64,000 bases of DNA, taken from an uncultured Chromatiales bacterium (GTDB taxonomy: Bacteria > Pseudomonadota > Gammaproteobacteria > SZUA-140). Shown piece after piece: positions 10,928 through 33,079 of this stretch (its first letter is position 1; every line of letters begins with the position of its first letter). The notes beneath the pieces were generated by a model. The model had not been told where the DNA came from, made no database searches, and saw only the letters and a list, made by a program, of their open reading frames with translations. The DNA is taken from positions 908 through 64,907 of the forward strand of contig CAYLYS010000001.1 of NCBI GenBank assembly GCA_964388175.1. The letters are read 5' to 3'. A program made the position numbers and the translations under genes.

Positions 10928-12343
10928 TCAGTCCCGCGCCGCCGCGGCGATGCCGGCTTCGGCGGCAGCGACCATCTGTGCGATCTCGTCCGCCGTGATG
11001 ACGTAGGGCGGCATGAAATAAACCACGTTGCCGAGCGGTCGCAGCAGCACGCCGTGTTCCAGCGCCGCGCGCGCGACGCGCAGACCGCGCCGTTCCTGCC
11101 ACGGCCACGGCGTACGCGTGCGGCGGTCGCGCACCAGCTCCAGCGCCACGATCATGCCGCGCTGGCGGATCTCGGCGACGTGCGGATGATCGGCGAAGCG
11201 CTCGCAGGCGCGCGCCATGGTCTGCGCCAGGACGCGGTTGTTTGCCAGCACCGGTTCCTGCGCGAAGATGTCGAGTGTCGCCAGCGCGGCGCGGCAGCCG
11301 AGCGGATTGCCGGTATAGCTGTGCGAGTGCAGGAACGCCTTCATCTCGCCGTGATTGGCATAGAAAGCCTGGTACACGTCTTCCTGGGTGAGCACGGCGG
11401 ACAGCGGCAGGTAGCCGCCGGTCAGGCCTTTCGACAGGCAGAGGAAATCGGGTGTGATGCCGGCCTGCTCGCAGGCGAACATCGTGCCGGTGCGGCCGAA
11501 GCCGACGGCGATCTCGTCGGCGATGAGATGGACGCCGTAATGCGTGCAGGCCGCGCGCAGCCGTTCGAGATAGACCGGTTCGTACATGCGCATCGAACCG
11601 GCGCACTGCACCAGCGGTTCGACGATCACCGCACAGACTTCATGATGGTGTCGTTCCAGCAGCTCGCGCATGGCCTCGAAGCGCCGCTCGGTGTAGGCGG
11701 CCACATCCTCGCCCACTTCGCGCTCATAGCAATCGGGCGATGGCGCGCGCAGGACTTCCATCAGCAACGGGCGGTAGGTGTCGCGATAGAGTTCGACGCC
11801 GCCCACCGCGAGCGCGCCCAGCGTTTCGCCGTGGTAGCTGTTTTCCAGCGCGATGAAGCGCGTTTTGCCGCCGTGACCGCGGTTGCGCCAGTAGTGATAG
11901 CTCATTTTCAGCGCCACCTCGACCGCCGCCGAACCGCTGTCGGCATAGAAACAGCGGGTGAGGCCGGGCGGCGCCAGTGCGGTGAGCCGCTCTGCCAGTT
12001 CGACGGCGGGCAGATGGCTGAAGCCGGCCAGCATGACGTGTTCCAGGGTGTCCATCTGCTCGCGCAGCGCGGCGTTGATGCGGGGGTGGGCGTGGCCGAA
12101 GAGGTTGACCCACCAGGAGCTGATGGCGTCGAGGTAGCGCCGGCCCTCGAAATCCTCGAGCCAGACGCCGCTGGCGCGGCGGATGGGCAGCGGGCCGCCG
12201 CTTTCATGGTCCTTCATCTGCGTGCAGGGGTGCCACAGCACAGCGCGATCGCGGGCGGCGAGGGACGCGTTGTCCCCGGTTCCGGGTTCAGCTCCGGAGC
12301 CGGCATGCGTGCTGGTCGTCATCGGATGCATCCGTCTATCCAT
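10928..12343 (-). CDS. bioA: adenosylmethionine-8-amino-7-oxononanoate aminotransferase
   Basis: Class III PLP aminotransferase aligning along its length with E. coli BioA (WHPxTQM..., SKGLTGGYLP). The start may be the Met at 12322. Confidence 0.85.
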   Translation of the reverse strand: MDRRMHPMTTSTHAGSGAEPGTGDNASLAARDRAVLWHPCTQMKDHESGGPLPIRRASGVWLEDFEGRRYLDAISSWWVNLFGHAHPRINAALREQMDTLEHVMLAGFSHLPAVELAERLTALAPPGLTRCFYADSGSAAVEVALKMSYHYWRNRGHGGKTRFIALENSYHGETLGALAVGGVELYRDTYRPLLMEVLRAPSPDCYEREVGEDVAAYTERRFEAMRELLERHHHEVCAVIVEPLVQCAGSMRMYEPVYLERLRAACTHYGVHLIADEIAVGFGRTGTMFACEQAGITPDFLCLSKGLTGGYLPLSAVLTQEDVYQAFYANHGEMKAFLHSHSYTGNPLGCRAALATLDIFAQEPVLANNRVLAQTMARACERFADHPHVAEIRQRGMIVALELVRDRRTRTPWPWQERRGLRVARAALEHGVLLRPLGNVVYFMPPYVITADEIAQMVAAAEAGIAAAARD

Positions 12344-19086: not shown

Positions 19087-19162
19087 GCTGGCGTAGCTCA
19101 GTCGGTAGAGCAGCTGATTTGTAATCAGCCGGTCGGGGGTTCGATTCCTCTCGCCAGCTCCA
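19087..19162 (+). tRNA. tRNA-Thr (anticodon UGU)
   Basis: 76-nt cloverleaf: acceptor GCTGGCG/CGCCAGC, D-arm GCTC-AGTCGGTA-GAGC, anticodon loop TTTGTAA (anticodon TGT), T-loop TTCGATT, 3' CCA. Its 3' 48 nt are repeated exactly at 32761-32808. Confidence 0.9.
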
Positions 19163-19199
19163 ATACTTAGATCACTTATCCACAGATCACGAAGCGCCT

Positions 19200-19217
19200 G
19201 TGGACCACTCTTGGACC
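19200..19217. repeat. 18-bp motif GTGGACCACTCTTGGACC (copy 1, attL-proximal)
   Basis: Near-identical copies occur at 19278-19294 (inverted) and 32626-32643 (direct, attR-proximal). Candidate integrase/RDF arm sites. Confidence 0.5.
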
Positions 19218-19277
19218 GATCGCCGGGAACATTCCACCATCAGCCACAGCAGAAACGCACGTTTTTTGCTGCTCATT

Positions 19278-19294
19278 GGTCCTGGAGTGGTCCA
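19278..19294. repeat. inverted copy of the arm motif (GGTCCTGGAGTGGTCCA)
   Basis: Reverse complement is TGGACCACTCCAGGACC. Lies between the tRNA and int. Confidence 0.5.
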
Positions 19295-19541: not shown

Positions 19542-20684
19542 ATGGCGACCATCGACAAACGCACCGACAGCAAGGGCGTCTCCATGTACCGGGTGCGCGT
19601 TCGGATGAAGGGCGTTCCGCAGCAGGTGGCATCCTTCCGCAGCCTGACCAAGGCCCGTCAGTGGGCATCGGCGACCGAAACCGCTATCCGTGAAGAGCGC
19701 CACTTCCCGACCAGCGAGGCAAAGCGCCACACCCTGGCCGAACTCATCGATCGCTATAAACGCGACGTGCTGAGCGCGAAGAAGCCCAAGACGGCTCGTC
19801 ACCAGGGTCAGCAACTTGATTGGTGGAAGGGTCAGCTCGGCGCCTACAGCCTGGATAAGATCACGCCGGCGAAGGTGTCGGAGCATCGGGACAGGCTGCT
19901 TCAAGAACCGATACCAGGCCCCGACGACAAGCCGCCAAGATACCGCGGGCCGGCGACGGTCGCCCGGTACATGGCGGCGCTCTCCCACGTGTTCACCATT
20001 GCGGTGAAAGAGTTGGGATGGGTTCAGGAGAATCCATTCGCCAAGGTCAGCAAGCCCAAGGAGCCCGGCGGCCGCGTTCGGTTCCTGTCTGATGATGATC
20101 CCCTTCCGAGCGGCGAGATCTTTGAGGGCGAGCGCACGCGCCTCCTGAAGGCGTGCAAGGAGAGTTCGAGCCCGGATCTGTATCCCGCGGTCGTGCTGTC
20201 TCTCAGCACCGGTGCCCGCAAGATGGAGTTGATGGGGCTTCGCTGGCGTCAGGTTGATCTGGTGCGCGGCATGATCACCCTCGAAGACACCAAGAACGGT
20301 GAGCGTCGGGCGCTACCGCTGGCCGGGCATGCGCTCGAACTGATGCAGGCCCGCGCGAAAGTGCGTCGGCTCGATTGCGATCTCGTTTTCCCGAACCCTG
20401 CGGATCTCGCTAGGCGTGAGAAGAACCCGGCGCACGTCGTGCGTCCCGTGGATCTTCGCGCGCCCTGGGAAGCGGCCCTGGCCGCTGCCGGCATCGAGGA
20501 CTTCCGCTGGCATGACCTTCGGCACTCTGCTGCTTCCTACCTCGCCATGTCCGGTGCATCGCTTGCGGAAATCGCCGAAGTGCTCGGGCACAAGACCCTT
20601 GCCATGGTGAAACGGTACAGCCATCTGTCTGACGCGCACGTCGCCCGCGTGGTGGCGAAAATGAACAGCCGGGTGTTCGGATGA
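19542..20684 (+). CDS. int: tyrosine-type site-specific recombinase / phage integrase
   Basis: 380 aa with a C-terminal catalytic domain carrying HDLRHS (HxxR) and VKRYSHL (Tyr nucleophile). About 380 bp from the tRNA. Confidence 0.9.
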   Translation: MATIDKRTDSKGVSMYRVRVRMKGVPQQVASFRSLTKARQWASATETAIREERHFPTSEAKRHTLAELIDRYKRDVLSAKKPKTARHQGQQLDWWKGQLGAYSLDKITPAKVSEHRDRLLQEPIPGPDDKPPRYRGPATVARYMAALSHVFTIAVKELGWVQENPFAKVSKPKEPGGRVRFLSDDDPLPSGEIFEGERTRLLKACKESSSPDLYPAVVLSLSTGARKMELMGLRWRQVDLVRGMITLEDTKNGERRALPLAGHALELMQARAKVRRLDCDLVFPNPADLARREKNPAHVVRPVDLRAPWEAALAAAGIEDFRWHDLRHSAASYLAMSGASLAEIAEVLGHKTLAMVKRYSHLSDAHVARVVAKMNSRVFG

Positions 20685-22196: not shown

Positions 22197-22356
22197 GGCT
22201 GCCGAAAATGAAAACGCCCGGCGGCAACCGGGCGTCGAGAGAGCAAAGCAAATCCAGGACCAATCGTAACCGCCAGCACAGCCAAGCGCAACCGGGTATC
22301 CCGCAGAGCACGGAGCAATGGCTGGCGTTCGTTCGGCGTGCTGCGAGGGACGGCCG

Positions 22357-23223
22357 ATGAGCGCGGATATCCTGCTGTCCCGCTTGGAGGGGGTCCGGGA
22401 TCGCGGTCACGGCCGGTGGATGGCGTCGTGCTGCTCCGGGCTGCATGATGATCGCAATCCGTCGCTGTCGATCCATGAAACCGCCGACGGAACCGTCCTG
22501 ATCAAATGTTTTGCGGGGTGTAGTGCCGCCGAGATCGTGGCCGGCGTCGGCCTCACGCTCGCGGACTTGTTCCCGGAGAAACTGACCCACCATCGGGCAC
22601 CGTTGCGAAATCGTGTTCCGGCGGCTGATCGCGAACTGATCGAGCGCGCCAAGCGGCAAGAGCAGGCCGAACGCGAGCGCAGACATGCCGACGCAGCGGA
22701 CAGGGCTCGCACACTCTGGGAGCGCGCACAGCCCGCCACAAGCCACGGATACCTGACGGCCAAGGGAATCAAGCCTTACGGCGCCCGCACGCTCTCCGGG
22801 CTTCTGGCGCTGCCGGTGCAGGACTTCGACGGACAGATACACAGTCTCCAGTTCATCGCCGGCGACGGTGGCAAGAAGCTGCTTTCCGGCGGGCAGAAGA
22901 AAGGCCGCTTCATCTCCGTTCGGTGGACGGGTGCGGACCGGCTGCTGATCTGCGAGGGCTTCGCAACCGGCGCAAGCTTGGCCGAGATTGAGCAGGGCTC
23001 CGACGTGCTCGCGGCCATCGATGCCGGCAACCTGTTGCACGTTGCCTGTGAGGCTCGCAGGCGCTTTCCTGGGCGCGAGATCGTCATCTGCGCGGACAAT
23101 GACCCGGTTGGCGTTGAGAAGGCACACGCGGCCGCTGCTGCGTCTCGGGCACTGGTGGCCATTCCCGAGACCGAGGGCGCGGACTTCAACGACATGCACC
23201 GCCGGGAGGTGGCCGCATGGTAA
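22357..23223 (+). CDS. DNA primase (P4-alpha-like zinc-ribbon + TOPRIM domain)
   Basis: Zinc ribbon CC-H...C-x-x-C (ASCCSGLHDD...IKCFAGCS) followed by a TOPRIM acidic pattern (LLICEGFATG ... IVICADNDPVG ... GADFNDM). Start set at MSADILL. Confidence 0.7.
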   Translation: MSADILLSRLEGVRDRGHGRWMASCCSGLHDDRNPSLSIHETADGTVLIKCFAGCSAAEIVAGVGLTLADLFPEKLTHHRAPLRNRVPAADRELIERAKRQEQAERERRHADAADRARTLWERAQPATSHGYLTAKGIKPYGARTLSGLLALPVQDFDGQIHSLQFIAGDGGKKLLSGGQKKGRFISVRWTGADRLLICEGFATGASLAEIEQGSDVLAAIDAGNLLHVACEARRRFPGREIVICADNDPVGVEKAHAAAAASRALVAIPETEGADFNDMHRREVAAW

Positions 23224-26254: not shown

Positions 26255-26776
26255 ATGAAGGCAAAGAAGAGCGCTCCGAGAGCCAAGGCGGGCACGTCGA
26301 AAGCCCCGCAGCGAGGGAAGGGATGCGACCAGACCAAGACCAGGCCGATGATTGGCAGGCCGCGCCAGTTTCCTGATGAACAGATCGAGCAGGCGTTTTC
26401 TCTGATGGCGGAGGAGGGCGTGTCGCTCAAGGCTGCGTGCCAGGCTGTCGGGATTGCCTATGACGCGACGCGGCAGAGGATATATAACGATCAGCGCCTT
26501 TCTTCCCTGCACGCGCGCGCGAGAGAGGATTACCTGGACGTGCGCGTGCAGGAAATGAACGAGATTGCCAAAACAGAGCCGGACGTTCAGCGCGCCCGCC
26601 TGATGTGCGACAACATCAAATGGGAAGCCGCCCGCGTCCTGCGCAAGAAGTACGGCGACCGCTTGGAGGTTGACCAGAACATCAATAACGTGAAGTCCCT
26701 GTCGGATGAGGACCTGGAGCGTGAAATCAATGCGTACATTGCGAAGATCGCAGAAGAGCGAGCTTCGGGGGCTTGA
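26255..26776 (+). CDS. terS: terminase small subunit (P22 gp3-like, GP3_package family)
   Basis: GRPRQFPDEQIEQAF...ARLMCDNIKWEAARVLRKKYGDRLE parallels P22 gp3 (GRNPKFESPEALWAAC...; RAKL..D.RKW.LSK..PKKYGDK). Confidence 0.7.
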   Translation: MKAKKSAPRAKAGTSKAPQRGKGCDQTKTRPMIGRPRQFPDEQIEQAFSLMAEEGVSLKAACQAVGIAYDATRQRIYNDQRLSSLHARAREDYLDVRVQEMNEIAKTEPDVQRARLMCDNIKWEAARVLRKKYGDRLEVDQNINNVKSLSDEDLEREINAYIAKIAEERASGA

Positions 26777-28052: not shown

Positions 28053-28835
28053 ATGAAGCTGTTTCTGCTCGCCGCTGCTGCGGTTCTTTCGGGATGCGCT
28101 ACGCCGCTTGTTCAAAACTTCTGGGGCGAGTCGACCGCCCCGGGTATGGCCTATGAGATGTCGATCGATGCGCTGGCCGCACGAACGCAGGCCCAGCCCC
28201 GCAGCTACATCATCTTCCCCGGAAATGACGATGTAGAACTTAGCGATCTCCAGTATCAGGAATACGAAACGTACCTGGTGCGCGCTCTGGAAATTCGCGG
28301 GTTCGAGCCCGCCGGGAACCCGGAAGATGCGAAAATCGCCGTCGCGTTCATGTATGGCATCGGAGAACCGGTGATCACGGAACGGACCTATATGCGGCCG
28401 ATCCGGGGAAAGACAGGTATCGCGTCCTCAAAGACCACCGGAGACGCGACGAGCACAGAACGCTACGGGCGCCGCAGCGTCTCATACTCTGAGACGACGA
28501 CCTACACGCCGTCGTATGGGGTTATTGGCTATGTGCCGGAGACTAAAACGACCGTGTCCTATATCCGGCACGCGATTGTGATTGCCTACGATCTCTCCGA
28601 GTATCTCGCGACCGGAAAGGAGGTCGAGCTGTGGAGGACAGTGGTGCAGAGCGAGGGGCCGACCGACGACCTGAGGCGCGCCATGCCGGTACTGATCGGC
28701 GCCGCCGCTGAGCACATGGCAACAAGCACGGGGAAGAGGCTATCCGTTCGCATGTCGGAGAATGCGCCGGTGGTTCGTGCCGTGCGTGGAGAGGTCACGA
28801 TAGACGCTTCCCAAGCGATCAATCACGCGCCCTGA
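28053..28835 (+). CDS. lipoprotein (island moron)
   Basis: Signal peptide with lipobox LSGC, 260 aa, no known domain. Confidence 0.55.
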   Translation: MKLFLLAAAAVLSGCATPLVQNFWGESTAPGMAYEMSIDALAARTQAQPRSYIIFPGNDDVELSDLQYQEYETYLVRALEIRGFEPAGNPEDAKIAVAFMYGIGEPVITERTYMRPIRGKTGIASSKTTGDATSTERYGRRSVSYSETTTYTPSYGVIGYVPETKTTVSYIRHAIVIAYDLSEYLATGKEVELWRTVVQSEGPTDDLRRAMPVLIGAAAEHMATSTGKRLSVRMSENAPVVRAVRGEVTIDASQAINHAP

Positions 28836-28900: not shown

Positions 28901-29263
28901 TCACCTGACCTGAACGTCGACCTCATACTTTTGCGTGGGAGGGAATGCCTCCAGCCACAGCTTCTGCTGCCGCATGTATTCGTCTTCGTCAGCAAGCCAT
29001 TCCTGCAAAACCGCCGGCTGGCCGGTGAACACCATGTAGTAAGGGATGTATCCCTTCCAAGGCTGTTGAAGCGAGTATTTCCAGATCCACCGGTCGGCGA
29101 TGAACTGCGTCTGAGAGGGTTCGCCCAGGACGGCTTTCACTTCATCCGGGGTCATGCCTGGCGCGAGTTGATTGGTTTTTGATACCGAGCCGAAGCCGCC
29201 CACCCCAGTAGCACAGCCCGCAATGAACGCGAAGAGCAACAGCAGCGCTAAACACCTTTTCAT
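28901..29263 (-). CDS. lipoprotein with BamE/SmpA_OmlA-like fold (island moron)
   Basis: MKRCLALLLLFAFIAGC lipobox, followed by GMTPDEVKAVLGEPSQ, resembling the BamE N-terminal motif. Start reassigned to the internal Met. Confidence 0.5.
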   Translation of the reverse strand: MKRCLALLLLFAFIAGCATGVGGFGSVSKTNQLAPGMTPDEVKAVLGEPSQTQFIADRWIWKYSLQQPWKGYIPYYMVFTGQPAVLQEWLADEDEYMRQQKLWLEAFPPTQKYEVDVQVR

Positions 29264-29345
29264 AATGCGACCCCTTCTGTCGGAACCTAGATCGGCCGCC
29301 GTAGCGCGCCTACCGCGAAAGCATGTTATTCCATCGGCACGGTAA

Positions 29346-30071
29346 TTGGTGGATTTAGGCGGGGAATCGCAGCGACATAGCCCGAAAGTATTAGGGCGGG
29401 ATCCGCCTGAGTTAATGCGAAGCGCCGCCGACTGGATCGACGCCAACCAGCTCGGGCGGCGCAATCTCACGCCGGATGCGTTCAAGCTGCTGCTGGGGAG
29501 AAGGTATAACCGGGCGAAGAAGGCGCAGACGGATGGCGGCAAAGGCACCGCCAAGCAAACCGTAGATCAAATTGATCCACGGTTATCCACCGCTCAGTCA
29601 CTCGCCCAAACCCACGGCGTCAGCGAAGCGACGGTGAAGCGGGCCGGCTACAAACTCATGCAGGACGATCGCATCTAGGCCGTCATCGAGCAGGGGCGCG
29701 CCGAGCTCCTGGAAGAGCTGAAGATGGAGCGTGACACCATCGCTCGGGAGATGGCCGCGCTCGGGTTCGCCAGCATGGGGGATTACATCGAGATCGATGC
29801 GGACGGCTCTCCCCGCTTCAAGCTCGGCGAGCTGACGCCAGCGCAGCTCCGCGCCATTCAGGAGATCATCATCGAGGAGCCGGCGACCGGGGGCCGGAAG
29901 GTTCGCCTGAAACTCCATGACAAGCGCGCTGCTCTGGTGGATCTGGCCAAGCTGCTCGGGTTTCACCGCGAGGTTTATCTGTACGGCCAGGCCTCGGGGC
30001 AGGGCGACGCGCCGGCGGTGCCGTGGATCGTTCAGCCTGTCGCGCCGGCGCCGGGCGCTGGCCCACGCTAA
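29346..30071 (+). pseudogene. terminase small subunit (Terminase_2/P27 family) interrupted by in-frame amber codon
   Basis: ORFs 29346..29678 and 29724..30071 share one frame, separated by TAG at 29676-29678. Read through, the product shows an HTH (GVSEATVKRAGYK) and the C-terminal motif GGRKVRLKLHDKRAALVDLAKLLGF typical of TerS. Confidence 0.55.
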
Positions 30072-30227
30072 CTTCGGCTGGTCATCCCGGGTGTCGGAGG
30101 CGGGTGGCCTCGGTTATGCGTTAGTCTGTCCCCCCGATTTGTCCTAAAATGCGTTCGTCGGTATGACGGCGTGTGTGCCCATGCTCGGGCAACGAGTTAT
30201 ATGGCGGGGATCTGGGGAGGGTGGCAG

Positions 30228-31076
30228 ATGGAAGCGAGACTAAAGCTCAAATACCTCGGCCCAGCAGTTGAAGAAGGGCTAATGGACGTCTATCAGGCGT
30301 CCGCGAACATGATTGCTTTCAGCGAATTCATGGTTGTTGCTGCTAAGGCAGCATATGGGGAGAAAATTGAGGCTCGGGCGGAAGTCGCGGGATTTGGTCG
30401 CGGCTCATTCATTACTCATCTCGTTTTCAGCTTTGCTGGCCCCATAGCTACTATTATTTCTGCTGCGACACCAGACCATCTACTGCGCATTACCAATGAT
30501 GCGTTTCACATATGGAAGCACCTGAGAGGATACCCAGCAAAGACTATCGAGCAAACCGATGGTCAGATGGTAAATGTTACAAACAATGATGGGGATATTG
30601 TTCAGGTTCGTATCGAATCGCTTCAGATCGTATTCAACGAGAAAGCGACGGATGCGGCTGGTCAGTTTGTCAGAGCGCAGCTATCCAATAGTGGTTTTGA
30701 TGGATTGAAGGTTGAGTCTGACAAGGGCGTTGTCGCCGAAGTAGATCAGGATGATGCTAATTCCTTCAGGGCTGTTGTTACGTCGGAATCAATCACGGAT
30801 ACGGCGATGGATGTTACGCTTATTCTTGAGGCGCCAGTGTTCAAGGATGGAAATAAGTGGCGCTTCAGTGATGGGCAAACCTCATTCTACGCCGATATTG
30901 TTGACCGGGAATTTATGGCTCGCGTAGATGCCGGAGAGCTTTTCGGGAAAGGGGACTGGCTGAGGGTTAGTTTAAGGTTGGTTCAGGATCGATCAGGGGC
31001 GAAAATCACGACCGAACGCACGGTGCTCAAGGTTTACGAGCACAGGAGGGGAATGGATCAGAACAAGTTGTTTTAA
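30228..31076 (+). CDS. hypothetical protein, cargo gene A (no recognisable domain)
   Basis: 282 aa, start at MEARLKLKY preceded by a GGAGGG RBS. Lies in the lower-GC block. Beta-rich C-terminal two-thirds. Confidence 0.55.
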   Translation: MEARLKLKYLGPAVEEGLMDVYQASANMIAFSEFMVVAAKAAYGEKIEARAEVAGFGRGSFITHLVFSFAGPIATIISAATPDHLLRITNDAFHIWKHLRGYPAKTIEQTDGQMVNVTNNDGDIVQVRIESLQIVFNEKATDAAGQFVRAQLSNSGFDGLKVESDKGVVAEVDQDDANSFRAVVTSESITDTAMDVTLILEAPVFKDGNKWRFSDGQTSFYADIVDREFMARVDAGELFGKGDWLRVSLRLVQDRSGAKITTERTVLKVYEHRRGMDQNKLF

Positions 31077-31425
31077 GTGCGCCCAGAAGACCGCGTGGCC
31101 GCAGGTGCCGCCGAGCTCGCTGATAGCCGCTTTGGCGAGCTGATCATGTCCTGCGCGTAGTGAAGGCTGGTCAAGGTGCTCGGCCATCGTCGCCAGGGCG
31201 GCGGCGTCGATCAGGTTGCGGTGGGCTCGGTCGTATTCGTTGGATTAGATCGGTGTCGCGCTGACTGTTTCGTCGGTTCCTTCCTTCTAAAGCTTGGCTA
31301 CCGCCGACAATCTTGCCTGCCCGCAATACAGAATAAGAAAATTCGTTGTTCCGGCCGACAATAATCTAAATAAAGAAATTATTGCTTCTCTGGACGTGAG
31401 TGAGGCGATTCTTGTGGGAGGGGGG

Positions 31426-32385
31426 ATGTTATCTAGTGCAAGCTGCCGTCGAATATTCAACGGTTTTATGCGGCGATGCGACAACTTTCTAGATCGACCA
31501 TGGGTAATTTTTCTGGGGCCGATGGTTATAGTCGTGCCTTACAGCTTCTTGCTCGCTTATTTTCAGATTGAACAGTTCCAAAGTGGCGTCCAAAAGCACC
31601 TCCCCTTGATTGCTGGGTTTGTTGACGGAAGCCCGGTTATGATCATTGTGTTGGCAACGATTTACTTTTATTCTTTCCCCGCATTCGATAGATTTGTGCG
31701 TGCGTACAATCGAAATAATGGGATAGATGCTGGTTCGGCCCTTAAGTTATTCAAAGTATTAGAGGAAATTGTTGGCGCCAAAGATCGTCGTTTTGGAATC
31801 ACGACGTCGAAAGTCGTGGCGGGTGAAAACATAAGCCCTGATCAGGCTTTTGATACGATTACCCAACCGCACCAGCAAATAGCTCTTCTAGTACAAGGTG
31901 TTCATACGTTTTTTGACGCAATTAATTCCAAAAACGTAAAGTTGCGAGTCAGTGCGGTTACGATCAGAGATGGAGCGCCCGATTGTTGGTTGTATTACTG
32001 GCCGACAGGTGATCCTCCTCGAACACCAATTGAGATTTTGAGGTCACCTGACAGTAGTATTTGTACTGCGGTTCGTAAGAGAAAGCTTGTCGTTATTGAG
32101 GATAGGCAGAAGGAAACTAGAAATGGCGGCGGGCACGTATGGAAAGACGCTGGCGTTGACGCTGGCGTTGAGGGATCGTTACTATGCTACCCTGTTTGGC
32201 ACCATTATACGACTACGATCCCGTATGTCCTGACTATTGTCGCCGACGAAAAGGGTTATTTTCGCAACGCCCAAGTTGAGCTTTATGAATGGATTCTTCG
32301 GCATTTTGCTGTTCGGATTGGCTTGGAACACAGCTTAGTCCTCCTTAAGGAGAGGGCTTGCGGAGAAGATCATGGCAAAGCTTAA
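31426..32385 (+). CDS. hypothetical membrane protein, cargo gene B (2 N-terminal TM helices + cytoplasmic domain)
   Basis: A GGGAGG RBS precedes MLSSAS. TM1 is WVIFLGPMVIVVPYSFLLAYF and TM2 is VMIIVLATIYFYSFPAF. The ~200-aa C-terminal domain resembles a GAF-like fold only weakly. Lower-GC DNA. Confidence 0.55.
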   Translation: MLSSASCRRIFNGFMRRCDNFLDRPWVIFLGPMVIVVPYSFLLAYFQIEQFQSGVQKHLPLIAGFVDGSPVMIIVLATIYFYSFPAFDRFVRAYNRNNGIDAGSALKLFKVLEEIVGAKDRRFGITTSKVVAGENISPDQAFDTITQPHQQIALLVQGVHTFFDAINSKNVKLRVSAVTIRDGAPDCWLYYWPTGDPPRTPIEILRSPDSSICTAVRKRKLVVIEDRQKETRNGGGHVWKDAGVDAGVEGSLLCYPVWHHYTTTIPYVLTIVADEKGYFRNAQVELYEWILRHFAVRIGLEHSLVLLKERACGEDHGKA

Positions 32386-32557
32386 GCAAATACGCGGTAA
32401 GTCTACAAACAGATCGTCTTCGATGACGGTTCCGTCAATCATTGTGTTGGATGCTGATACGCTTGAATCCAGTCGACGGATCAACGCCAAAAAAATCAAG
32501 AAATCTGTTAAGACTGATTTAGCAATTCTTAGAAAACATAGCTTCCAATCTGGGTAA
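32372..32557 (+). CDS. small basic protein, cargo gene C (61 aa)
   Basis: A GGAGA RBS precedes ATG. Overlaps the end of gene B by 14 nt. Lys/Arg-rich. Confidence 0.35.
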   Translation: MAKLKQIRGKSTNRSSSMTVPSIIVLDADTLESSRRINAKKIKKSVKTDLAILRKHSFQSG

Positions 32558-32760
32558 GCTAATGGGCGAAGAGCTTTAATCTGTATCCTTGATCGTTGCT
32601 GACTCCAGCAATTCCCCGCAGTTCCGTGGACCACTCCTGGACCGCTTGCCCGCAAAAAACGGCCGTAATCGACGACAATTCACCATTGCGACGGGACTGT
32701 AAGGCGCTGATAGTTCTGCGGTATATTGTTGCCTATTAGCGTCGCTTATAGTGCGGCCGG

Positions 32761-32808
32761 GATTTGTAATCAGCCGGTCGGGGGTTCGATTCCTCTCGCC
32801 AGCTCCAA
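32761..32808. repeat. attR: 48-bp direct repeat of tRNA-Thr 3' half
   Basis: GATTTGTAATCAGCCGGTCGGGGGTTCGATTCCTCTCGCCAGCTCCAA is identical to 19115-19162. No 5' half of a tRNA precedes it. Confidence 0.9.
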
Positions 32809-33079
32809 TCTCAAGATCGTTCCGCTGACACAGGAAGTGGCTCAGGCAATGCCGGGCTGCTCTTTCCTATCGCGTTGCTCTCATTGCGGTTTCGCAGGAT
32901 GAAAACGGCGTCGCTGATGATGACGCTGGCTTCCTGGGTGACGGGGTTTGTGCCGGTCAGGCTTGCGGCCTCGTCCGCGGGCGTTTGCTCCGCCGCAGCA
33001 CACTATCTATGATAGCGTCATGTCGAGCGCGCGGGCGGGCCGCGCGGGGTTCGCCGACTGCCTGCAAGCCAGTAGGGAG

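Follow-up and report, generated by a model that had tools for sequence, protein, structure and literature searches.

RESULTS

Three Genes in a Low-GC Block

The window analyzed here is a stretch of 64,000 nucleotides from an uncultured Chromatiales bacterium (contig CAYLYS010000001.1), and its positions 30100–32760 form a block of low guanine-plus-cytosine (GC) content that carries three genes on the forward strand, here called A, B, and C. A reading made from the letters alone, with no database searches (the sequence-only reading), had presented the three as one candidate anti-phage or abortive-infection system of an undescribed kind. Our data point instead to two separate units, namely gene A, which matches a family already listed among defence candidates, and the pair B-C, which recurs in many other genomes independently of A.

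The open reading frames (ORFs) of A (30228–31076, 282 residues), B (31426–32385, 319 residues), and C (32372–32557, 61 residues) are present as that reading had placed them, with a purine-rich sequence resembling a ribosome-binding site ahead of each, and the description of C as a basic product whose gene overlaps that of B by 14 nucleotides is likewise borne out (isoelectric point (pI) 11.1). The statement that none of the three proteins has a recognizable family holds for B and C, for which no match was obtained in Pfam, NCBIfam, PHROGs, or PADLOC, and does not hold for A, which belongs to PDC-S42, NF053583, and PHROG 3243.

By direct count the GC content of 30100–32760 is 0.493 (0.489 for A, 0.463 for B, and 0.403 for C), against 0.621 for the remaining island in which the block lies and 0.656–0.667 for the chromosomal flanks. 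Windows of 400 nucleotides over 30200–32800 range from 0.44 to 0.50, whereas all other windows from 20 to 42 kb are at 0.535 or above, and the GC content at third codon positions is 0.42–0.51 in the three genes compared with 0.74–0.77 in the core genes of the island. The drop from about 65 to about 45% estimated earlier is thus real, although 45% is slightly too low a figure and the trough is not continuous. The 349-nucleotide spacer between A and B interrupts it, with a GC content of 0.57 overall and 0.66 at 31100–31200. On the reverse strand of its higher-GC part (31077–31290) runs an antisense frame that stays free of stops for about 57 codons (...EYDRAHRNLIDAAALATMAEHLDQPSLRAGHDQLAKAAISELGGTCGHAVFWAH), probably a remnant of a gene of native GC content that divides the two low-GC modules. 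A scan of 29900–32900 for promoters and terminators found sites no more numerous than in shuffled sequence.

Genes B and C Recur as a Pair

The product of gene B (31426–32385, forward strand) is modeled as an anchor of two transmembrane helices (2TM; residues ~26–47 and 69–88) with its N terminus inside the cell, followed by a cytoplasmic GAF domain (residues ~100–311). The charge pattern around the two hydrophobic helices follows the positive-inside rule, and in the predicted structure the remainder of the chain adopts a GAF fold in which the β-sheet is flanked by N- and C-terminal helices. Two N-terminal TM helices and a GAF-like cytoplasmic domain had been proposed from the sequence, and both the hairpin and the GAF fold were found, the latter on firmer ground than the "vague" resemblance first described. 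The relationship to GAF domains is visible by (predicted) structure only. No Pfam match, the GAF profiles included, was obtained at E ≤ 1, a profile of B searched against the sequences of the PDB gave nothing significant (a single match, E 1.1), and 50 members of the B family gave no meaningful match in Pfam, NCBIfam, PHROGs, or PADLOC. The motifs F..ITQP.QQIALL, PPRTPIE.L.SPDS, and GSLxCYP, together with Arg-297 and Glu-301 on the C-terminal helix, are conserved among homologues; these motifs map to the usual pocket and lid region of GAF domains.

An exhaustive search places the B family at no fewer than 662 representative clusters at 50% identity (a word-indexed search with a broad alignment of B returned seven proteins only), and the close subfamily comprises only five clusters among 5.8 billion proteins. 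The longest ORF of B starts at a TTG at 31294 and would encode 363 residues, as in one public gene call. The alignment of homologues and the sequence GGGAGGGGGG just ahead of the ATG at 31426 together support the 319-residue form. The approximately 130 nucleotides 5′ of B (31294–31425) are AT-rich and contain the repeated GCCGACAAT and an AATAAT...ATTATT inverted repeat, which could be an operator.

Gene C (32372–32557, forward strand) encodes the 61-residue basic peptide, its reading frame overlapping B at the 3′ end. Four short contigs carry close homologues of B, and in each of them an ORF of 53–64 residues overlaps the B 3′ end and its peptide aligns with C. The survey was extended to 36 B loci, with homologues down to ~25% identity, and wherever downstream sequence exists a same-strand ORF of 53–77 residues is found, its start lying between −58 and +12 nucleotides of the B stop. 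These ORFs yield 26 distinct partner peptides with a median pI of 9.9, most of which share a variable basic N terminus, a [VI]x[VI]xLD strand, and a C terminus of the form (K/R)D[LV]xLL(K/R)(K/R)F[GS][FL], and the contigs that carry the pair range in GC content from 32 to 59%. Neither C nor 17 of its homologues has a Pfam match, the 18 together have no match of note in NCBIfam, PHROGs, or PADLOC, and a profile of C gave nothing significant against PDB sequences.

Because a small partner ORF recurs across the B loci, we regard B-C as a conserved two-gene unit, and judged by this recurrence it is a real and previously unannotated module. The two genes are probably translationally coupled. The organization is that of type II-like toxin-antitoxin (TA) modules, in that the genes adjoin and overlap in the same orientation, are kept together across loci, and travel on mobile elements.

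Gene A Matches a Catalogued Family of Defence Candidates

Gene A (30228–31076, forward strand) matches three profiles as a stand-alone gene of 282 residues: the PADLOC hidden Markov model PDC-S42 (E 8.2e-47, residues 2–281 on profile positions 3–298 of 302), NCBIfam NF053583 (E 7.6e-58, 196.2 bits against a cutoff of 60), and PHROG 3243 (E 5.8e-43). On the strength of these matches A is already catalogued, as the defence candidate PDC-S42 and as NF053583, and the label "undescribed" no longer applies to it. A PADLOC run, one of the checks suggested with the sequence-only reading, accordingly places one gene of the block in a listed defence-candidate family. The PDC entries are 145 candidates drawn from BREX, DISARM, and type I restriction-modification (R-M) loci on the principle of "guilt-by-embedding" (Payne et al., bioRxiv 10.1101/2024.01.29.577857). 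NF053583, in contrast, bears the product name "LAPAL motif-containing putative phage structural protein" (LAPAL_fam). A word-indexed search found more than 257 clusters of the A family, of which the best 120 are 48–65% identical.

The A protein is composed of three domains, the C-terminal one (residues ~186–273) having five strands and a helix. Fold comparisons, BFVD included, returned oligonucleotide/oligosaccharide-binding (OB) folds or uncharacterized viral proteins, with one capsid chain at rank 26, and in the model the C-terminal domain is the likely source of the OB-fold matches. A profile of A gave nothing significant against PDB sequences. A latent TM segment was considered and discarded, the single borderline hydrophobic stretch at residues 61–79 (Kyte-Doolittle score 1.66) being unconvincing.

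Genes A and B Do Not Co-occur

We collected 80 loci with A homologues from many phyla, most with flanks of ±10 kb. Clustering of all neighbor ORFs revealed no conserved partner of A, the largest neighbor cluster occurring in 9 of 72 loci, and A therefore has the single-gene character of PDC-S42, with no obligate neighbor over 72–80 loci. Searches by tblastn found B or C in none of the 80 A loci, and A is absent from all 37 B loci, 15 of which extend over at least 8 kb. The only other contig found with A, B, and C (L124) comes from another sequencing run and is 100% identical in DNA, so it provides no independent occurrence of the three genes together.

These counts bear directly on the proposal that A, B, and C form a single anti-phage or abortive-infection system, in which A would be a soluble partner with a sensing role, B the 2TM effector, and C an accessory protein. 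The three genes are indeed adjacent, co-stranded, of low GC content, and in a cargo position, and A is in a defence-candidate family. Against this stand the zero co-occurrence in both sets of loci, which was the test named in the sequence-only reading, the PADLOC definition of A as a single-gene candidate, the lack of a conserved neighbor of A, the spacer with its 66%-GC gene remnant, and the identity of the one other A-B-C contig, and we consider a single system hardly credible. Nor does the architecture of a soluble partner plus a 2TM protein, invoked earlier as recurring in abortive-infection modules, describe this block, as A has no conserved neighbor and the conserved partner of B is C. 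The lack of co-occurrence and the native-GC spacer together indicate that two modules, each acquired on its own, came to lie side by side, and on this sequence evidence the low-GC block is a cargo slot with two unrelated modules, A and B-C. What survives of the original idea of att-proximal accessory cargo of a defence type is that the block is horizontally acquired cargo, that A is in a candidate family, and that B-C has an organization and distribution like those of toxin or defence modules; the single system does not.

Genomic Surroundings of Gene A Homologues

Several A homologues lie close to defence genes. In Aromatoleum (L086) the homologue adjoins a type I R-M system and a PIN gene, on a metagenomic contig it adjoins a ResIII/methylase/UvrD block and an integrase, and a type I R-M system also adjoins the homologue in locus L008 and lies nearby in L014; many loci have no defence neighbor, and in Cupriavidus and one other contig the homologue stands alone amid housekeeping genes. 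Applied to 111 non-redundant ORFs from the flanks of A homologues, PADLOC finds REase_I, MTase_I/II, mad2 twice (MADS), a DRT-type reverse transcriptase, and AbiD, a raw list without background control that suggests an enrichment of defence genes around the family. A is lower in GC content than its flanks in 83% of loci. Within the R-M system of Aromatoleum buckelii (L086, 14232–14981), a 249-residue gene with no Pfam match is found between hsdR and hsdS, and this gene is itself a candidate of the guilt-by-embedding type.

The name of NF053583 raises the question of whether A is a phage virion protein, present here as a remnant or as a capsid-remodeling factor of a satellite. Besides the name, PHROG membership, the presence of homologues in 37 IMG/VR contigs and three cultured temperate phages, and a faint, below-cutoff Pfam match to domain I of the tail-sheath protein Gp18 (E 0.085) would be consistent with such a role. 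The positions of the genes in those phages are not. In Lactobacillus phage A2 (L120) the homologue is ORF19, between the endolysin and the integrase and with its own annotated terminator; in Listeria phage vB_LmoS_188 (L121) it is gp27, between a putative superinfection-immunity gene and the integrase; and in Bifidobacterium phage PMBT6 (L125) it is the gene adjoining the integrase. In all three temperate phages it thus lies beside the integrase and outside the virion modules, and this placement in the lysogeny/integrase region of every phage examined contradicts the structural name. Among IMG/VR contigs of at least 20 kb, 11 of 28 A homologues lie within 10% of a contig end, compared with the 20% expected (p 0.015). 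The fold matches, which are OB or uncharacterized viral proteins with the lone capsid chain only at rank 26, and the many homologues that are lone chromosomal copies argue in the same direction, and we find a virion role highly improbable. The NCBIfam name is probably misleading, and automated annotation passes it on.

Distribution of the B-C Pair

The B-C pair was found in a variety of settings, many of them mobile. It is annotated in RefSeq on the conjugative plasmid pS22303 of Shewanella baltica OS223, and on a phage fragment genes for a lipoprotein, TerS, TerL, and a portal protein follow it at a distance of ~1 kb. TARA contigs carry a B-C homologue in a variable region, where genes for a Y1 transposase, NERD, and ThsB-TIR follow, and elsewhere the pair forms an islet inside hydrogenase/complex I operons with DDE transposase, HigB/A-like, and AbiEii/NTase genes. 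Lone insertions among housekeeping genes also occur, at polyprenyl synthase/NifQ and at fatty-acid desaturase/CIA30/PALP. The latter position is fixed in one marine lineage (L103, L105, L106, L111, L113, and L119, contigs of up to 735 kb), in which B-C has CIA30/PALP on one side and, on the other, the fatty-acid desaturase and farther out a TonB-dependent receptor. B is usually poorer in GC than the DNA around it, with 0.43 compared with 0.57 in one instance and 0.38 compared with 0.56 in another. A tblastn search with the B of the window found nothing in 50,697 cultured phage genomes. By comparison with known modules, this patchy, mobile, and compositionally foreign distribution is that of TA or small defence modules.

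Two further accounts of B-C were weighed against these data. The first is that the pair is a lysis-timing device of the holin/antiholin kind, in which B would make membrane lesions and C would regulate it. The GAF domain of B is predicted to be cytoplasmic, whereas the corresponding domain of holin T is periplasmic, generic GAF domains outscore holin T in comparisons with the B fold, and none of the loci examined has an adjoining endolysin. The cytoplasmic location of the GAF domain and the lack of a linked endolysin make the model weak; the presence of B-C on a plasmid and in solitary chromosomal islets that hold no phage genes, and the empty search of the phage genomes, speak further against it, and we judge it very unlikely.

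The second is that B-C is a physiological membrane signaling pair, made up of a GAF sensor of a metabolite or second messenger and a small basic regulator, that occasionally travels on mobile elements and acts on, for example, the envelope, division, or stress responses. This is a serious rival, and the position conserved in the marine lineage suggests vertical inheritance and possibly a non-defence, physiological role. However, B lacks an output domain, and neither a kinase nor a cyclase nor a transcription factor is linked to it. The pair is patchy and rare (the five close clusters noted above) and usually lower in GC content than its surroundings; its carriers include a satellite-like island, a conjugative plasmid, and a phage, and it also occurs beside transposases and TA, TIR, or NERD genes. 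Selfish or defence cargo is typically distributed in this way, core physiology is not, and a physiological pair accordingly seems to us a possible, if rather doubtful, explanation.

No nucleotide cyclase is present in the cassette of the window or among the annotated neighbors of B homologues, and an effector model of the kind known from the cyclic oligonucleotide-based antiphage signaling system (CBASS) or Pycsar was rejected for B for want of a linked cyclase. The annotated loci of B homologues likewise showed no Panacea-like gene.

The Host Island

The block lies at the right-hand end of a 13.6-kb island. ARAGORN identifies a single tRNA gene in the window, a tRNA-Thr(TGT) at 19087–19162 on the forward strand, which is the integration target and of which the 3′ part (19116–19164) is the attL copy; an exact 49-nucleotide copy of this 3′ end at 32761–32809, also on the forward strand, is attR. 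The repeat borders the block and so places A-B-C directly inside attR, in agreement with the sequence-only reading, which had assigned the block to the attR end of a satellite. The forward strand of the island also encodes a tyrosine integrase (19542–20684; Pfam Phage_integrase, E 2.6e-27), a Toprim/primase of a replication module (22318–23223; Pfam Toprim_3 and PHROG 2249 DNA primase, E 1.6e-55), and a small terminase-like protein (26255–26776; Pfam Sf6_terminase, E 3.3e-13, and PHROG 1482 TerS, E 2.9e-20), whereas Pfam and PHROG scans recognized no capsid, tail, or lysis genes in the island. The combination of integrase, primase, and TerS with no virion genes supports an island of the satellite type, and the flanking att repeats are a further mark of such islands; the element in tRNA-Thr fits this class, an assignment from gene content alone.

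In the excised circle A-B-C would sit directly upstream of attP-int, with the integrase just downstream. A 19-nucleotide motif, GTGGACCACTCYTGGACCG, is present at 32626–32644 (+), ~117 nucleotides inside attR, and in two copies just inside attL, at 19200–19218 (+) and, inverted, at 19278–19294. The copies probably serve as arm-type sites to which the integrase or an excisionase binds, and they mark the right edge of the cargo.

Other ORFs were noted near the block. Just 5′ of A, a second small-terminase-like ORF at 29724–30071 has a weak match to Terminase_2 (E 0.004) and is possibly a fragment. A probable cargo gene at 28053–28835 (+) encodes 260 residues with a signal- or lipobox-like N terminus and a weak match to DUF4136, and a further probable cargo ORF at 28901–29554 (−) has an internal Met start that gives MKRCLALLLLFAFIAGC, a lipoprotein signal. 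Lipoproteins of prophages and satellites are often exclusion factors.

DISCUSSION

Proposed Functions of the Two Modules

The best explanation of the locus as a whole is, in our view, that it holds two independent cargo modules, A being a defence or exclusion factor and B-C a toxin/partner module, and we give this account an even chance of being correct. The position of A homologues beside an integrase or att site or beside R-M-type genes is what leads us to propose that A is an exclusion or defence factor; it would act as a single gene expressed by the lysogen or the island, and the OB-like β-barrel part may serve in sensing or binding.

B would be a dimer-prone inner-membrane protein, its 2TM hairpin joined to a cytoplasmic GAF sensor with no enzymatic output domain. 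In this proposal the membrane part of B would be the effector, which would damage the membrane itself or disturb a machine housed there, such as the divisome, and the GAF domain would be the switch. C may be a stoichiometric partner that binds B and keeps it inactive or couples it to a cue. On loss of C, or on arrival of a ligand or phage cue at the GAF domain, the membrane part of B would then damage the envelope or block division, so that growth of the infected cell stops or the mobile element is stabilized. Toxicity, neutralization by C, the trigger, and an anti-phage effect are thus all things that we infer for a putative module. By analogy, the chance that B-C works like a membrane-GAF toxin/partner pair comes, in our estimate, close to even; membership in the toxFtsL family, compared below, is not claimed. 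A bolder version, which we hold to be possible and on balance unlikely, makes B-C the founding case of a fairly widespread two-gene immunity or addiction system, with an enzyme-free, GAF-switched 2TM effector carried as cargo by satellites, plasmids, and phages. The GAF domain would in that case respond directly to a cue from the phage or the infection, whether a small molecule, a nucleic acid (the cue type of the immune regulators CapP and IrrE), or the loss of a labile C, and would turn the hairpin of B into an effector that kills the cell or blocks its division.

Several observations weigh against this division of roles. For A, neither PDC-S42 nor the LAPAL motif is named in any paper within the literature searched, and the protein is acidic overall, so an OB-like fold need not bind nucleic acid. 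For the pair, PADLOC v2 gives no match to B or C, and the model of B is of moderate confidence (predicted local distance difference test (pLDDT) score 71, from an alignment of five sequences). No DNA-binding or antitoxin domain was detected in C by profile searches, and the charges of the two partners are not clearly complementary (median pI 9.9 for C against 7.8 for the soluble domain of B). In the TARA contigs (L089–L094, ~10939–11160) the ORF overlapping the end of B encodes 73 residues, was left uncalled by the gene caller, and has no match to the C profile; the partner in this branch may be highly divergent or replaced. Recognizable defence or TA neighbors occur in only ~2 of roughly 8 independent B-C contexts, and the fixed position in the marine lineage, as noted above, would also suit a physiological role.

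The analysis replaces what had been misread as one system, from three adjacent genes of low GC content, with two testable units. For PDC-S42 it adds context evidence that the gene is a moron, located next to an integrase or att site, in temperate phages and satellites. The novelty lies with the B-C architecture, which is new relative to known small membrane-toxin or sensor modules, A being an already catalogued candidate; the pair has hundreds of representatives on contigs of widely differing GC content, and a satellite-like island, a conjugative plasmid, and a phage are among its carriers. If B-C is toxic or protective, it would be the second independent case, after toxFtsL, of a GAF-driven toxin acting at the level of the membrane, with a compact sensor-effector design; if it is non-toxic, it would be a new membrane signaling pair. 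Small genes of the C type are often missed by automated gene calls, as in the TARA loci, and merit annotation.

Comparison with Known Systems

The island resembles satellites of the phage-inducible chromosomal island (PICI) type and P4-like cargo hotspots in being integrated in a tRNA gene, in its size of ~13.6 kb, in its integrase, primase, and TerS genes, in carrying accessory cargo at one end, and in having no virion genes. It differs in that it is known from its genes alone, with no helper phage, capsid-remodeling genes, or induction evidence.

Within its cargo, gene A is a typical member of the PDC-S42 family, with a full-length match to all three profiles and a stand-alone gene, and like its relatives it occupies a variable region, such regions having integrases, R-M systems, or other defence genes close by in some of the loci. 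No structural feature sets it apart, and the word "structural" in the NCBIfam name conflicts with the gene positions that we see.

For B-C, one set of comparisons is offered by CBASS Cap14 and Cap15, the Pycsar TM effectors, and Cam1 and Csx23 of type III CRISPR, in which an N-terminal TM module is joined to a cytoplasmic ligand sensor and a linked cyclase or Cas10 is needed. B is built alike, as a small N-terminal TM module fused to a cytoplasmic sensor, and its membrane part is presumed to be the effector. It differs from these effectors in having no conserved cyclase or other enzyme as a neighbor, and its sensor is a GAF domain and not a SAVED, CARF, or cyclic nucleotide monophosphate-binding domain.

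A GAF domain that serves in defence is known from CapP and IrrE, where it binds a single-stranded DNA cue and the small partner protein CapH (PMC13228613). The GAF domain, there in contact with both a cue and a small partner, is what B shares with these regulators. They are, however, soluble metallopeptidases with a helix-turn-helix (HTH) domain, whereas B is membrane-anchored and contains neither peptidase nor HTH.

The toxin toxFtsL(D9) of Gelidibacter mesophilus (WP_027127282.1) is a TM + GAF protein of 281 residues that is neutralized by a cognate antitoxin encoded beside it (Ernits et al. 2023, PMC10440598). Under its action cells filament, lose divisome assembly, and lyse with no depolarization; the toxin has no enzymatic domain and is predicted to be a dimer, and its antitoxin, PanA, is a Panacea-domain protein (PMC10440598). 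Likened by description, B agrees with it in the TM and GAF parts, in a length of ~320 residues, in the absence of an enzymatic domain, and in an obligate small neighbor. The partners differ, that of toxFtsL(D9) being a Panacea protein and C being a basic peptide of 53–77 residues that has no Pfam match and is encoded downstream of, and overlapping, B; because C is not a Panacea-domain protein, B-C departs from toxFtsL:PanA in one defining feature. By this analogy, toxFtsL(D9) is nevertheless the closest validated precedent for the B-C pair.

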